Part shown: in pieces, positions 3,295 through 38,612 of the stretch
Layout: each line of letters opens with the position of its first letter
How positions within the stretch are numbered: position 1 is the stretch's first letter
Source of the DNA: Candidatus Omnitrophota bacterium
GTDB taxonomy: Bacteria; Omnitrophota; Gorgyraeia; JAGLLT01
Length of the DNA stretch: 64,000 nucleotides
Reading direction: 5' to 3'
Assembly: GCA_030632085.1 (NCBI GenBank)
Contig: DAOVJY010000001.1
Span: 142,289-206,288, forward strand
The notes under the pieces: model-generated
Databases searched by the model: none
The model's input: only the letters and a program-made list of their open reading frames with translations
Told to the model about the DNA's origin: nothing
Position numbers and translations under genes: made by a program

Positions 3295-4884
3295 TTACCT
3301 TTTGGGTTTCTTGGCATGGCTGATTAGAGGTTTTTGGCCTTTTTCTTTAAAACTAATAACGATTTTTTCCGCGACATTGAAGGGAACGGTTATAAAAGAA
3401 AATTTATCCATTACCTGTACGTCGCTGATGAGTTTGGCCTTAACCGGGACTTTACTCATAATAAGATCAACAAGTTTTTTAGCACTCATCTTATCTTTCT
3501 TGCCGAGTGCTACGAAAAGCCTCGCTTTACCCTGTTGATCAACTTGCTTCCCTTTTCCACTGACCTCTTTTATTTCGCCATAGGTATCAGGATTAAGTTC
3601 TTCTTCAAAACAATGACTTAATGTCGCGGCCACTATTTCTACCGGATCATTATTCCCAAGCATTTTTTTAGCCCAGTTATAAAAATTAACGTCAATCTTA
3701 CCCCTAAGAACGGCGTCTAAATCATCGTGAATTTTTTTCCTTTTGACATCAATAATATCTTTTACGTTTGGTACTTTTGCTTTCTTAATATCAGTCTTGG
3801 CGATACGCTGTATAAACATCAACTGCTTATATTCACTTGGCGTAATAAATGTAATAGCGGTGCCCTCATTGCCCGCCCTTCCTGTACGGCCTACTCTATG
3901 AACATAGTACTCCGGATCCTGAGGCAATGAAAAGTTGATAACGTGGGTGAGATTAATAACATCTATTCCTCGAGCGGCAACATCTGTGGCTATAAGAATA
4001 CGAACTCTTTGTTTCCTGAATTTATCAAGAGTTCTTTCCCTTTGCGACTGGGAAATATCCCCATGAATAGCAGCCGCGTCATATCCTCTATCTATTAAGC
4101 GAGATGAAACAGAATCAACATTACTTTTTGTTCTGCAAAAAACTAAAGCGTAAAAATCGTCTTCAATATCTATTATTCTGCATAACGCCTCGAATTTATC
4201 GGAGGCTTTTACCTCAAAGTATATTTGCTCGGTTAAGTTAGTTGTCAGCTGCTCCGCCTTAACCGCAATAAACTCATAACCTTCCATGTATTTGTGGGCA
4301 AGGTCCTTTATCCTCTTGGGCATTGTAGCTGAAAACAAAAGCGTTCTTTTGTCGGGGTTTGTATACCTCATTATTTTTTCCATATCCTCAACAAATCCCA
4401 TATTAAGCATTTCATCCGCCTCATCAAGTATGAGGTGATCTATTTCTCCAAGCTTTAGTGTTTTTCTTTTAAGATGATCAATTACCCTACCCGGAGTTCC
4501 AACGACAATATGCACACCTTTTTTTAATCTGCGCAACTGCTGATCAATTGACTGGCCGCCATATATGGGAACTATTCTGATATCCTTGCTGCCTTTAAGT
4601 GAATTGATTTCTTCCGAGACCTGAATAGCCAACTCCCGCGTAGGAACCAGAATTAGCGCCTGAACCGCTCTGGTGTCGGCGTCAATCATTTCGATTAAAG
4701 GTAATCCGAAGGCGGCTGTTTTGCCTGTGCCTGTTTGGGCCTGAGCAATGATATTAGTATCATCTCTTAACATAACAGGGATAGTCATAGCCTGAATTTC
4801 AGTTGGCTCTTCAAAACCCTTTTTGTTAATCGCCTCCAGCACTTTTGCTGAAAGTCCTAAATCGCTAAATTTCTTCTTATTCAT
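3295..4884 (-). CDS. DEAD-box ATP-dependent RNA helicase with C-terminal DbpA-type RNA-binding domain
   Basis: AQTGTGKT (motif I), DEAD, SAT and HRVGRTGRAG motifs are present, with a DbpA-like C-terminus. The likely start is MNKKKFSDLGL at 4884 rather than the ORF-track start at 4950. Confidence 0.85.
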   Translation of the reverse strand: MNKKKFSDLGLSAKVLEAINKKGFEEPTEIQAMTIPVMLRDDTNIIAQAQTGTGKTAAFGLPLIEMIDADTRAVQALILVPTRELAIQVSEEINSLKGSKDIRIVPIYGGQSIDQQLRRLKKGVHIVVGTPGRVIDHLKRKTLKLGEIDHLILDEADEMLNMGFVEDMEKIMRYTNPDKRTLLFSATMPKRIKDLAHKYMEGYEFIAVKAEQLTTNLTEQIYFEVKASDKFEALCRIIDIEDDFYALVFCRTKSNVDSVSSRLIDRGYDAAAIHGDISQSQRERTLDKFRKQRVRILIATDVAARGIDVINLTHVINFSLPQDPEYYVHRVGRTGRAGNEGTAITFITPSEYKQLMFIQRIAKTDIKKAKVPNVKDIIDVKRKKIHDDLDAVLRGKIDVNFYNWAKKMLGNNDPVEIVAATLSHCFEEELNPDTYGEIKEVSGKGKQVDQQGKARLFVALGKKDKMSAKKLVDLIMSKVPVKAKLISDVQVMDKFSFITVPFNVAEKIVISFKEKGQKPLISHAKKPKR

Positions 4885-34113: not shown

Positions 34114-36358
<2,245 letters not shown>

Positions 36359-36379
36359 TTATATATAAAAAAGCCCTCT

Positions 36380-36416
36380 CTGTCAAGGTATTTATTGGAA
36401 ATTAGGCCTAATTATG
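36380..36416 (-). promoter_or_regulatory. Probable gap-operon promoter region; copy 1 of a 37-bp direct repeat
   Basis: The minus strand reads CATAATTAGGCCTAATTTCCAATAAATACCTTGACA, then 17 nt, then TATAAA. A 34/37-nt matching copy at 37034-37070 forms the yefM promoter. Confidence 0.55.
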
Positions 36417-36487
36417 CTTGGTGAAACTTAGAAGAAGAAAGGACCTCATTTACCCTTCTATAATAAATTATTTCACGTAATGCAGAA

Positions 36488-36757
36488 CTATTCATAATGT
36501 GTCCACATTCGGAGTATCTTTACAGTCTTGATATCTTTCAATATTTGGTAAACTAACCTATGATGAATATTAACACGACGAGAATATGCTCCAACTAAAT
36601 CTCCAACTAACTTTTCAAAAGATGGTTGCTGCTGGAAAGGATTATTGTTAAGGATTTCTAATAATTCTTCTACTTTTGGACGTAATCCCGAGGCATTAAT
36701 CTTTTTGGCATCTTTTTGAGCTTGTTTTGTGTAAACCAAGCGCCATTTCTTCACCAT
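36488..36757 (-). CDS. yoeB: YoeB/Txe-family toxin
   Basis: W.LVYTKQA...YSRRVNIHHRLVYQI..VKILRMWTHY matches YoeB. The likely start is MVKKW, which overlaps the yefM stop. Confidence 0.8.
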   Translation of the reverse strand: MVKKWRLVYTKQAQKDAKKINASGLRPKVEELLEILNNNPFQQQPSFEKLVGDLVGAYSRRVNIHHRLVYQILKDIKTVKILRMWTHYE

Positions 36758-37002
36758 TTCAGCACTTTGCTGCATTTTTCAACAGGTGTTTTGAGCCCTT
36801 CCCGTATTGATTTTCTCATCTCGGGGATTGACAATAAATAAAGTGTTTCCTTTACCGCGTTCCAATCATCAGTAGACACAAGAACAGCATTTGCCCTCTT
36901 GCCTGTAATCTGAATCGGCATATGAGAAGAAGCCGTTTCATCTAATAGTTTGTATAGTTTTGTTCTTGCTTCAGTTACGGTTATTGTTTTCATAATAATC
37001 AC
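36751..37002 (-). CDS. yefM: YefM/Phd-family antitoxin
   Basis: TVTEARTKLYKLLDE...VLVSTDDWNAVKETLYLLS matches Phd/YefM. A TTGACA-17-TATATT promoter and AGGTGA RBS lie upstream on the minus strand. Confidence 0.8.
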   Translation of the reverse strand: MIIMKTITVTEARTKLYKLLDETASSHMPIQITGKRANAVLVSTDDWNAVKETLYLLSIPEMRKSIREGLKTPVEKCSKVLKW

Positions 37003-37033
37003 CTCTAGTTAAATATACGTTATTACGTACGCA

Positions 37034-37070
37034 TTGTCAAGGTATTTATTGAAAATTAGGCATAATTATG
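37034..37070 (-). promoter_or_regulatory. yefM-yoeB promoter; copy 2 of the 37-bp direct repeat
   Basis: TTGACA-17-TATATT, AGGTGA RBS, then ATG. Confidence 0.55.
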
Positions 37071-37210
37071 TTTTCCAGATAACAATAAGACCTTATAGGG
37101 CTCTTCGCTTATTCGTTTTATTAGGATTTCTTCTAGTTTTTGCTTTAATTTGGGTGATAATGCACGAACATCTTTAAGGGCGGTTTTTGTAAGCGTGATT
37201 TAATAACGCC

Positions 37211-37402
37211 TTATTTCTGACTCTCAAATGCCTCATCCATGGAAACAGTTTCACCTTTTTTCATTTCTTTTACAGACTGAGCAATGCTTTTTCGAAAGCC
37301 CGGAATCGAAGATAAATATATTGTTTCCTCTTGGGCTTTCAAATCGTCCCCAACTGATACATAAACATCATTCTCTAATTTATTGCTCGTCATAAATAGC
37401 AT
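37211..37402 (-). pseudogene. Truncated second Phd/YefM-like antitoxin fragment (C-terminal half only)
   Basis: NDVYVSVGDDLKAQEETIYLSSIPGFRKSI aligns to the C-terminal half of the YefM at 36751..37002. The upstream 37403-37513 is open in another frame with no toxin partner. Confidence 0.4.
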
Positions 37403-37513
37403 CCTTTTCGTTATCCCACAACTCTTTCAAAACGATGTCTTCCTCCAGATGAATAGTAAGTAATTTTAACTCTTTTTCTTCAGTAATTCGCTGTAAATAT
37501 TTAGGTATATTTT

Positions 37514-38467
37514 TCACAATACCTTCTCCAGCCTATCCCCGCTTGCTAATCTAAAACCAATTAAAAAATCAGTATCATCCAGGGGTTTTTTGCCCTCTTG
37601 TTGTAAGCTAAGCAGTCTAATATAGCCATTTTTACATTTAACGACTAAACCTTGCTTCTTGTGAGCTAATGCCACTTCGGAGGGTTTATAATCCCTATCC
37701 TCTAATAAATCACTAGCTACCTCAATCACCCGGCTCTTAAGAACCTTTATTCTTTTGTCCTTAAAGAAAAAATAAGCTCCCGGCCAACCGGATGTACCTC
37801 TTATTAAATTATGAACTTCCCGGGCATCTTTATTCCAAACAATCAACCCATCTTCTTTCTTTAGGGCTCTGGCAAGCGATACTTTACTTTTGTCTTGAGG
37901 AGTGAAAATAATTTTGCCTTCAATAATTTCATCAATAACTTCTAAAATCATTTCACCTGATAAACCGGACAACTTATCTGAAAGCGTCTGCGCATTATCG
38001 TCCGAACTTATATCCAGTTCTTTTATATTAGCTATCTCACCCGCATCCATACTATTATTTATCTTAAAAATACTCACACCAGCCTTAGCCTCCCCGTTTA
38101 TCAGCGCCCAGTTTATGGGTGCCGCTCCTCTGTATTTTGGTAAAAGCGAGGGATGGATATTAATTGAATATAGTTTAGGAAGATTGAAGATGCTTTCAGG
38201 TAAAAAACTGCCATAAGCACAGACAACATAGATATCAGCTTTAATCTCGCGAAGTTCATTTAGGGCATCAAATGGTTTTTTATATTCAAGCACTTTTTGC
38301 CCCTTACTTAGAGCTAATTTCTTTACAGGCGACTGCATTAGCCCCAATGACCTGCCGCCTTTGCTATCGGGCTGGGTTACAACGGCCTCAACTCTATGTT
38401 CACTCGCCCAAAGCCTTTTAAGAGGCTCTAAAGCAAACTCCGAAGTACCAAAATAGACTATTTTCAT
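37514..38467 (-). CDS. fmt: Methionyl-tRNA formyltransferase
   Basis: MKIVYFGTSEFA start and an SLLPKYRGAAPI motif are present, with the C-terminal Fmt domain. Confidence 0.85.
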   Translation of the reverse strand: MKIVYFGTSEFALEPLKRLWASEHRVEAVVTQPDSKGGRSLGLMQSPVKKLALSKGQKVLEYKKPFDALNELREIKADIYVVCAYGSFLPESIFNLPKLYSINIHPSLLPKYRGAAPINWALINGEAKAGVSIFKINNSMDAGEIANIKELDISSDDNAQTLSDKLSGLSGEMILEVIDEIIEGKIIFTPQDKSKVSLARALKKEDGLIVWNKDAREVHNLIRGTSGWPGAYFFFKDKRIKVLKSRVIEVASDLLEDRDYKPSEVALAHKKQGLVVKCKNGYIRLLSLQQEGKKPLDDTDFLIGFRLASGDRLEKVL

Positions 38468-38612
38468 ACACTTATCCATGATTATACAACTTATCATAGC
38501 TTGTACTTAAATTCAACTTAAATATGCTATAATTACATATAACCTTATATATTGACAAAATTTACGCTTTTGCATATAATCATATTTAGACATTTAATAA
38601 TAGGAGAAAATT

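Follow-up and report, generated by a model that had tools for sequence, protein, structure and literature searches.

The window analysed here is a 64,000-nucleotide stretch of the genome of a Candidatus Omnitrophota bacterium (contig DAOVJY010000001.1), and this report concerns the short interval within it that separates fmt from gap, where a yefM-yoeB toxin-antitoxin (TA) pair lies between the two copies of a direct repeat. All genes at this locus are on the minus strand, and along the direction of transcription their order is fmt, two small open reading frames (ORFs), yefM, yoeB, and gap-pgk-tpiA. The fmt gene occupies 38497..37514 (Pfam Formyl_trans_N/C), and gap, which encodes GAPDH, occupies 35294..36304 (Pfam Gp_dh_N/C) and is the first gene of gap-pgk-tpiA-secG, a synteny that is also found in relatives.

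The direct repeat is best delimited as 39 nt, at 36381..36419 (copy A) and 37035..37073 (copy B), with 36/39 nt identical and a spacing of 654 bp; in the narrower frame of a first-pass annotation of this DNA (36380-36416 and 37034-37070), the reported identity of 34/37 was recovered. The copies differ at 3 positions, and in both of them TTGACA forms the gene-proximal end on the minus strand. Searching the 64 kb with a degenerate 36-nt pattern (at most 3 mismatches) returned 2 sites, which are the two repeat copies themselves, and none in 100 shuffles. Copy A consists of the gap upstream segment and the -35 hexamer TTGACA (36386..36381) of the working gap promoter. Copy B consists of the same UP-like gap-promoter segment with its TTGACA (37040..37035) and is now the upstream half of the yefM promoter, so that one repeat copy indeed stands ahead of yefM, as had been proposed.

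The repeat corresponds to the -35 hexamer of the gap promoter together with the UP-like stretch before it. Ahead of gap, TTGACA is followed after 17 nt by TATAAA, and the promoter spacer, a T-tract, together with this -10 hexamer (36363..36358; the whole at 36358..36380, minus strand) reads TTTTTTTTATATAAATATA, which is kept in all relatives. The repeat core AATAAATACCTTGACA also stands ahead of gap in relatives, where it is followed by the conserved T-tract and by TATAAATATA. Copy A is contiguous with the conserved gap spacer and -10 (window 36419..36351 corresponds to L090 4813-4881, with 84% identity; L090 and similar designations are relatives' loci), and gap would thereby retain its own complete promoter. 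In addition, gap may receive read-through from the yefM promoter, because no terminator is detectable after yoeB; a scan of the coding strand between yoeB and gap found no terminator-like site.

Between the two copies lie 615 bp, comprising the yefM operator and -10, yefM, yoeB, and 68 nt of spacer. The yefM gene (36751..36993, minus strand; ribosome-binding site GAGGTGA) encodes an intact 80-aa Phd/YefM antitoxin (Pfam Phd_YefM, PF02604, E 2.2e-18, 66 bits against a cut-off of 29.8), which matches the solved structures of Rv3357 (3.3e-12) and YefM (2a6q). The yoeB gene (36488..36757, minus strand) encodes an intact 89-aa YoeB/Txe toxin (Pfam YoeB_toxin, PF06769, E 6.4e-10, 39.4 bits against a cut-off of 27), which matches the structures 7v6w from S. 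aureus (1.2e-13) and 2a6q from E. coli; with the S. aureus YoeB it aligns end to end, including ...SRR...HR.VY...W(T/S)HY(E/D), and the C-terminal ...SRR...HRLVY...THYE motif is retained. The C-terminal His-Tyr region of YoeB is described in the literature as having a catalytic role. The pair is antitoxin-first and overlapping, with the yoeB ATG at 36757 and the yefM stop at 36751-36753, and the layout at L084, a relative's locus that holds the same kind of pair between fmt and gap, is identical.

Compared with L084, yefM shows 81% amino acid identity and a dN/dS ratio (nonsynonymous over synonymous substitution rate) of 0.09, and yoeB shows 83% protein identity and a dN/dS of 0.04; these ratios, like the dS, pS, and pN values given below, are Nei-Gojobori estimates. 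The dS of both genes relative to L084 is as high as that of core genes, and the pair appears to be old yet selectively maintained. Its guanine-plus-cytosine content is 34-39%, against 36.5% for the window, so that composition shows no foreign signal, which fits an exchange within the clade. The cassette family is present at unrelated loci and in several phyla. One example is L172 (1815-2320), where a YefM-YoeB pair with a YoeB 84% identical to that of the window lies between a CarboxypepD_reg protein and PNP_UDP_1/thrS/infC; this context is unrelated to that of the window, and therefore the cassette family moves between loci.

The sequence ahead of yefM is where the two kinds of DNA meet. TTGACA, 17 nt, and TATATT make up a promoter that scores 11/12 against the consensus in a promoter scan, and the part contributed by the cassette (37012..37034, minus strand) contains GTAC at 37030..37027, GTAT at 37018..37015, and the -10 TATATT at 37017..37012. 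The GTAC and GTAT cores are 12 bp apart, centre to centre, and overlap the -10 hexamer. In L084, where yefM has its native promoter (aaaaaatgCCTTGACAaaACGTACGTAATAACGTATATT), the corresponding stretch is ACGTACGTAATAACGTATATT; the yefM promoter of the window is nearly identical to it from CCTTGACA on, and everything upstream is gap-promoter DNA. The repeat homology stops exactly at CCTTGACA; in this yefM family the same sequence serves natively as the -35 and lies 4 nt before the paired GTAC operator. The junction itself comprises the 8 perfectly matching base pairs of CCTTGACA within 21 nt that match at 16 positions.

That this promoter architecture belongs to the cassette family is evident from a metagenome scan with YefM, which yielded at least 80 further yefM loci from many environments (68-79% identity) with 72 distinct upstream regions. 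Among the matches listed, GTAC-N8-GTAC occurs in 59 of the 72 distinct upstream regions, TTGACn lies exactly 4 nt ahead of the first GTAC in 54 of those 59, and the gap segment precedes yefM in 0 of the 80 loci. The yefM promoter of the window thus appears to be a hybrid, in which the gap UP-like region and -35 are joined to the spacer, operator, and -10 of yefM itself, and a sigma-70 promoter of this kind would transcribe yefM-yoeB. The contribution of the gap segment would be at most an UP-like A/T-rich region. Autorepression by YefM or YefM-YoeB was probably kept, at the GTAC/GTAT pair over the -10, and yefM-yoeB would be an intact, autoregulated type II module. The earlier view that the cassette co-opted a housekeeping promoter/operator does not hold in that form: cassettes of the family carry their own TTGACA, paired GTAC operator, and -10, and gap has supplied only the shared -35 and what lies upstream of it.

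GAPDH homologues assign the window to Omnitrophota; relatives with GAPDH identities of 95, 89, 86-88, 83, and ~75% were considered, and the contigs of several of them were compared. In all fetched relatives, fmt is followed by a variable stretch and then by gap-pgk-tpiA-secG; further neighbours of the site are priA, a TPR protein, and an SBP_bac_5 binding protein. In L088/L089 the site holds no insert: fmt, a 215-bp spacer with one repeat copy, and gap follow one another, exactly as the first-pass annotation had predicted for relatives without the TA genes. In L082/L083 (89% GAPDH identity), the spacer holds a 1317-aa helicase-nuclease (PADLOC PDC-S37, 4e-131). In L084-L086, it holds yefM-yoeB and a 149-aa ORF of no known function (ORF149), with yefM right after fmt and behind its native promoter. 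L090/L091 carry two small ORFs, followed by an intact Phd antitoxin (86 aa) and a RelE/ParE/YoeB-like toxin (84 aa; in L090, YoeB_toxin 4e-07 and ParE-like 6e-07), an arrangement that can be written ParD'-YefM'-Phd-RelE. Finally, L174 carries an intact ParD (PF09386, 2.8e-12)-PemK pair followed by a decayed yefM-like gene (ParD-PemK-YefM''). Exactly one copy of the repeat segment, always ahead of gap, is present in L082, L083, and L084-L091, so that the identification of the repeated segment as gap-promoter DNA stands, and no examined relative has both copies without the TA genes. Inspection of ORFs and Pfam matches within ~5 kb on either side revealed no integrase or transposase in the window or at the relatives' loci. 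Overall, the fmt-gap spacer in this clade is a small hotspot for type II TA and defence genes.

Some further features of these loci may be recorded here. The helicase-nuclease gene (L082 668-4621, L083 834-4787) encodes AAA_11/AAA_12 helicase domains and a DUF559/MTES_1575 nuclease-like end, and it also matches Hhe (2.9e-65). In the relatives whose GAPDH is 83% identical, yoeB is followed by ORF149 (L084 4356-4805; also in L085 and L086, and partial in L087), the start and stop codons of the two overlapping; ORF149 has no Pfam or PADLOC match and may be a third component of the L084-type cassette. The Phd-RelE pair of L090 has its own promoter (4159-4255), in which TTGACA is followed by TGTACATAA and GGTACATAA, 13 nt apart from start to start; this paired operator is another GTAC type, and the region is deleted in the window.

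Between fmt and copy B, the window holds remnants of other modules, which can be read by comparison with L090. In blastn alignments, window 37530..37304 matches L090 3860-4083 at 77.5% identity (the fmt end, ORF44/45, and an old YefM remnant), window 37310..37095 matches L090 4417-4632 at 85.3% (the Phd C-terminus and the toxin N-terminus), and window 37102..37035 matches L090 4785-4851 at 83.8% over 68 nt (the spacer upstream of the gap promoter and copy B). The match already mentioned for copy A continues into the gap spacer and -10.

The remnant next to copy B is the 5' fragment of a RelE/ParE/YoeB-like toxin gene (37095..37205, minus strand), covering approximately codons 3-39, which has lost its ATG and is identical at 30/35 residues (86%) to the 84-aa toxin of L090. 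A 152-bp deletion with CCNTA microhomology, reaching into the spacer upstream of the gap promoter, took away its 3' half. Ahead of it lies ORF63 (37211..37402, minus strand), a chimeric antitoxin pseudogene with an N-part at approximately 37402-37305 and a C-part at approximately 37310-37211. The N-part matches ORF54 of L090 (60% identity; dN/dS of this part 0.64), which is the C-terminal remnant of an older yefM and ends in ...SIRQGLKTPLEKCGNELKW, as intact YefMs do. The C-part matches the 86-aa Phd of L090 at its C-terminus, with 58% identity overall and near-identity from SIPGF on, and the two parts are joined at conserved LSSIPG codons by a 333-bp deletion. An older Phd-RelE module thus seems to have been inactivated by two deletions at microhomologies.

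The remnant nearest to fmt is ORF45 (37380..37517, minus strand), which encodes 45 aa corresponding to the C-terminal half of a ParD-type (ribbon-helix-helix, RHH) antitoxin. Its start codon, GTG, shares nucleotides with the fmt stop (GTGA), and a Shine-Dalgarno-like GGAGAAGG lies inside the fmt 3' end. Over 43 residues it is 47% identical to positions 39-81 of the ParD found intact in L174 (L174 3054-3305); the alignment covers the C-terminal 43 residues only, and the N-terminal RHH portion is lacking. ORF45 itself gives no Pfam ParD hit, and no PemK was found in the window. Its library homologues include full-length ParD-like proteins of 83-84 aa and several truncated forms of 42-53 aa; it is equally truncated in L090/L091 (L090 3873-4007), and its start is also present in L173. 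ORF45 is a fragment of a ParD and not a ParD. In comparison with L090, pS is 0.73 and pN is 0.22 (synonymous and nonsynonymous differences per site; Fisher p 8e-6), a bias that is found only in its own frame and with a core-like dS, which suggests that this ParD tail is a maintained small protein.

Together, the remnants represent at least three older modules, namely the ParD piece, the old YefM and Phd that were fused into the chimera, and the fragment of the partner toxin of Phd. The first-pass annotation had described a single decayed YefM-like antitoxin without a toxin at 37211-37402. The Phd/YefM C-terminal signature bears out the family assignment (Pfam Phd_YefM, positions 43-72, E 0.045), but this ORF is a chimera and only one of three remnants; a toxin fragment, residues 5-39, is encoded at 37205-37095, and ORF45, at 37517-37380, is a further antitoxin remnant.

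Copy B is contiguous with the ancestral spacer upstream of the gap promoter (37074..37102, minus strand), and this flank, taken without the repeat, resembles that of L090 (p ~0.0045 against shuffles). The upstream flank of copy A is unrelated to that of copy B (p 0.8) and to that of L090 (p 0.48; local alignments against shuffles), and therefore both ends of the repeat are sharp. The same shuffles (p 0.8 and 0.48) led us to reject an apparent continuation of the homology upstream of the copies, where LLLS..KHN occurs in both translations. On the upstream side it is copy B that retains the ancestral flank, and the ancestral DNA downstream, comprising the spacer, the -10, and gap, has stayed with copy A.

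The Phd-RelE remnants (window 37095-37402; L090 3994-4632) are 85% identical to L090 at the nucleotide level, with a dS of 0.3-0.55, against 72-78% identity and a dS of 1.3-1.9 for the flanking core genes. The remnants are closer to L090 than the core genes are, which indicates that the module was exchanged between lineages after the core genomes had split; this lower divergence is direct evidence of recombination at this locus.

These observations lead us to favour, with a probability of about 0.6, an origin of the present arrangement by recombination between two differently loaded fmt-gap alleles that were joined at the shared -35. One parent locus would have been of the Phd-RelE type, as in L090, and the other of the YefM-YoeB type, as in L084. 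One crossover would have been homologous recombination of the ordinary kind, in core or promoter DNA of the flanks, and the other an illegitimate or homeologous join at the shared CCTTGACA, by homology-facilitated illegitimate recombination (HFIR) or a related process. Each parent would have given its own upstream half of the gap promoter, and the direct repeat would be the result. Because each parent contributes its own copy of this half, no duplication step would be needed, and the earlier suggestion that the module integrated by duplicating the promoter region would become dispensable if the copies do stem from two recombined versions of the locus.

A related junction was observed at L174 (3618-3913), where, after ParD-PemK, a diverged gap upstream segment with TTGACA lies 19 nt before the decayed yefM-like gene (p ~0.0035). 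This gene has no GTAC operator, and the contig stops ~235 nt further on. L174 represents a second, older, and diverged example of a junction between the gap segment and a yefM-like gene.

Several points weigh against recombination between two alleles. An exact donor, with yefM-yoeB, the 68-nt spacer, CATAATTAGGCC..., and gap in succession, was not found in the sampled genomes, nor was a donor locus among the yefM matches listed (68-79% identity), and the nearest other yefM-yoeB that was found is only 81-84% identical at the protein level. None of the sampled relatives is closer to copy A or copy B than these are to each other, and donor and recipient are therefore not assignable. The contigs of the closest relatives (L081, L173, and L174) break within the locus. 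Moreover, the 68-nt spacer between yoeB and copy A (36420..36487, minus strand), whose source is obscure, is left unexplained: no homologue was found in any fetched locus or elsewhere in the window. This spacer holds no convincing terminator and folds no better than shuffles (z-score -0.42).

The strongest competitor, which we nevertheless regard as unlikely, is an insertion in situ, in which a 615-bp piece entered right after the resident gap -35, a 39-bp target was duplicated during repair, for example through staggered breaks or replication template switching, and the 3 differences arose later. An insertion with its target directly duplicated on both sides would have exactly this geometry, both boundaries are sharp (p 0.8 for the flanks of copies A and B), and at two positions both copies have C against T in L090. 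However, no transposase or integrase was found in the window or in relatives, and the ends of the insert lack terminal inverted repeats that would mark an insertion sequence or transposon. The 39-bp duplication is far longer than those left at the target by known transposases, which also counts against this explanation. Furthermore, the cut would have to fall precisely between the -35 and the operator of the cassette, a boundary that the shared CCTTGACA explains for free, and the presence of the cassette in this very fmt-gap spacer of a relative (L084) makes recombination between alleles the simpler route.

Recombination between alleles might also have occurred more than once, and here we can only speculate. 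Because yefM-type modules carry a consensus TTGACA right before their operator, they could recombine repeatedly with the -35 of the strong gap promoter, with the older junction of L174 as another such case, so that the site would act as a promoter-anchored trap for cassettes, in which older modules are pushed toward fmt and lose their toxins, and ORF45 is kept as an orphan antitoxin against PemK, with an anti-addiction role. If this doubtful extension were true, ORF45, translationally coupled to fmt, could neutralise incoming PemK-type toxins and would be a TA counterpart of the orphan immunity arrays of type VI secretion systems (T6SS).

A quite improbable alternative is that the segment was selected as a shared operator. 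The palindrome AATTAGGCCTAATT, centred ~23 bp upstream of the -35, would bind a transcription factor or YefM-YoeB, and the second copy would place yefM-yoeB and the glycolytic operon under joint control. The segment does stand ahead of both transcription units, and in copy A (36413..36400) the palindrome is a perfect 14-mer at a position typical of class I activators or UP elements. The palindrome had been noted in the first-pass annotation as a part of the repeat, which is correct for copy A but not for copy B, where the sequence is AATTAGGCATAATT; a G at 36407, unique to copy A, makes it perfect. It is imperfect in L090 as well, and in L088/L082 it is absent, its position being non-palindromic. 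In L084/L087, its position is taken by coding DNA, the 3' end of ORF149, and gap still keeps AATAAATACCTTGACA there. The distal part of the repeat is variable in general, with CATAATTATGCTTAATT in L090 and TATAATTATAACTATTT in L088/L082. Since only copy A has it in perfect form and it is not conserved, the palindrome is unlikely to act as an operator, and its perfect form is peculiar to this copy. A global operator was considered separately and rejected, as the 14-mer is not enriched in the window (3 sites with at most 2 mismatches, against 1.35 expected from shuffles) and is not conserved in relatives. The proposal that YefM-YoeB binds the palindrome fares no better, since the YefM family has a conserved GTAC-N8-GTAC operator downstream of the -35 (PMC1802561), and the operator expected here is the GTAC/GTAT pair in the part that is not repeated.

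An assembly artefact, in which two co-existing strains, one carrying the Phd-RelE remnants and the other yefM-yoeB ahead of gap, were assembled one behind the other via the promoter segment, is very improbable. This is a metagenome assembly, and the contigs of close relatives break here, which suggests population heterogeneity. However, an assembly path would have to lead from CCTTGACA into the yefM operator, and the overlap with an L084-like native promoter would be only 8-9 nt there, far below assembly k-mers; the 3 differences between the copies exclude a single collapsed repeat, and the contig is long (413,928 bp is reported for the cluster with an identical YoeB). Were yefM already joined to the gap segment in the second strain, the feature would be real anyway. 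Equally improbable is site-specific capture, with the segment as an attachment site (integron attI/attC-like or other) for TA cassettes inserted by a recombinase: varied cassettes do recur at one site, with an older gap-segment/yefM-like junction in L174, but none of the 80 other yefM loci listed has the segment, no integrase lies near the site or in the flanks in the window or any relative, so that the marks of an integron cassette (for which the attC model was not applied) are lacking, and the bounds differ, as yefM follows fmt with its native promoter in L084 and the helicase gene lies upstream of an intact segment.

The leader of gap deserves a brief mention. In L082 (4700-4835), L088, and L090, it is ~85 nt longer than in the window (36305-36357) and carries an inverted repeat with 12-nt arms, GAATTTATATAT ... 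ATATATAAATTC, which the window lacks and which may form a leader hairpin. The gap leaders of L081 and L084 differ from this type; L081, which comes from the same sample as L174, begins 12 nt before the gap -10. No Rfam family matched anywhere in the window.

Integration hotspots for defence and TA genes between conserved core genes are a known kind of locus. The fmt-gap site resembles them in that a fixed core pair flanks variable content, including the helicase-nuclease as a PADLOC candidate. Unlike the usual hotspots, it is tiny (0.2-4 kb), contains no mobile-element genes, and is placed right on the promoter of a glycolytic operon that is essential. It offers a case, resolved to the base pair, of small TA cassettes without mobility genes piling up at one chromosomal site, apparently through recombination between alleles that uses a shared promoter element as microhomology. 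The event would have rebuilt both promoters, so that the glycolytic operon and the cassette could both keep their expression.

The cassette itself is similar to the E. coli YefM-YoeB (Axe-Txe) system, in which paired TGTACA motifs 12 bp apart cover the -10 and are bound by YefM and YefM-YoeB (PMC1802561). As in that system, the antitoxin gene is followed by an overlapping toxin gene, two motifs with a GTAC-type core lie 12 bp apart over the -10, and the C-terminal HY motif of the toxin is kept. In contrast to E. coli, the motifs predicted in the window are CGTACG and CGTATA instead of TGTACA, and the DNA up to and including the -35 copies the upstream half of a housekeeping promoter.

The proposed joint is comparable to those of HFIR, which usually show 3-10 bp of microhomology (Streptococcus pneumoniae, Acinetobacter baylyi, and P. 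stutzeri; PMC3240628). Here too, foreign DNA would have been gained beside a homologous anchor, and the 8 bp of CCTTGACA fall within the 3-10 bp range (PMC3240628); loci of both the L090 and L084 types, the candidate parents, exist in relatives. The joint of the window differs from the HFIR cases in that it is deduced from sequence and in that a functional promoter element, common to cassette and target, serves as its microhomology.

Finally, the row of remnants is reminiscent of the orphan immunity-gene arrays of the T6SS in Vibrio cholerae, for which a model of sequential displacement has been proposed (PMC5361080), and of rhs and contact-dependent inhibition (CDI) orphan arrays: successive toxin/antidote modules have arrived, toxins have been lost or truncated, and antidote pieces stand in a row. 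Unlike in T6SS orphan arrays, the modules of the window are type II TA systems and not secreted effectors, the pieces are mostly fragments, and only ORF45 shows evidence of selection; this truncated ParD tail, apparently maintained, is the best lead to emerge from the locus. Overall, the components and processes described here are all of known kinds, and the value of the fmt-gap site lies not in a new mechanism but in a clean case study of such processes in an uncultured phylum.

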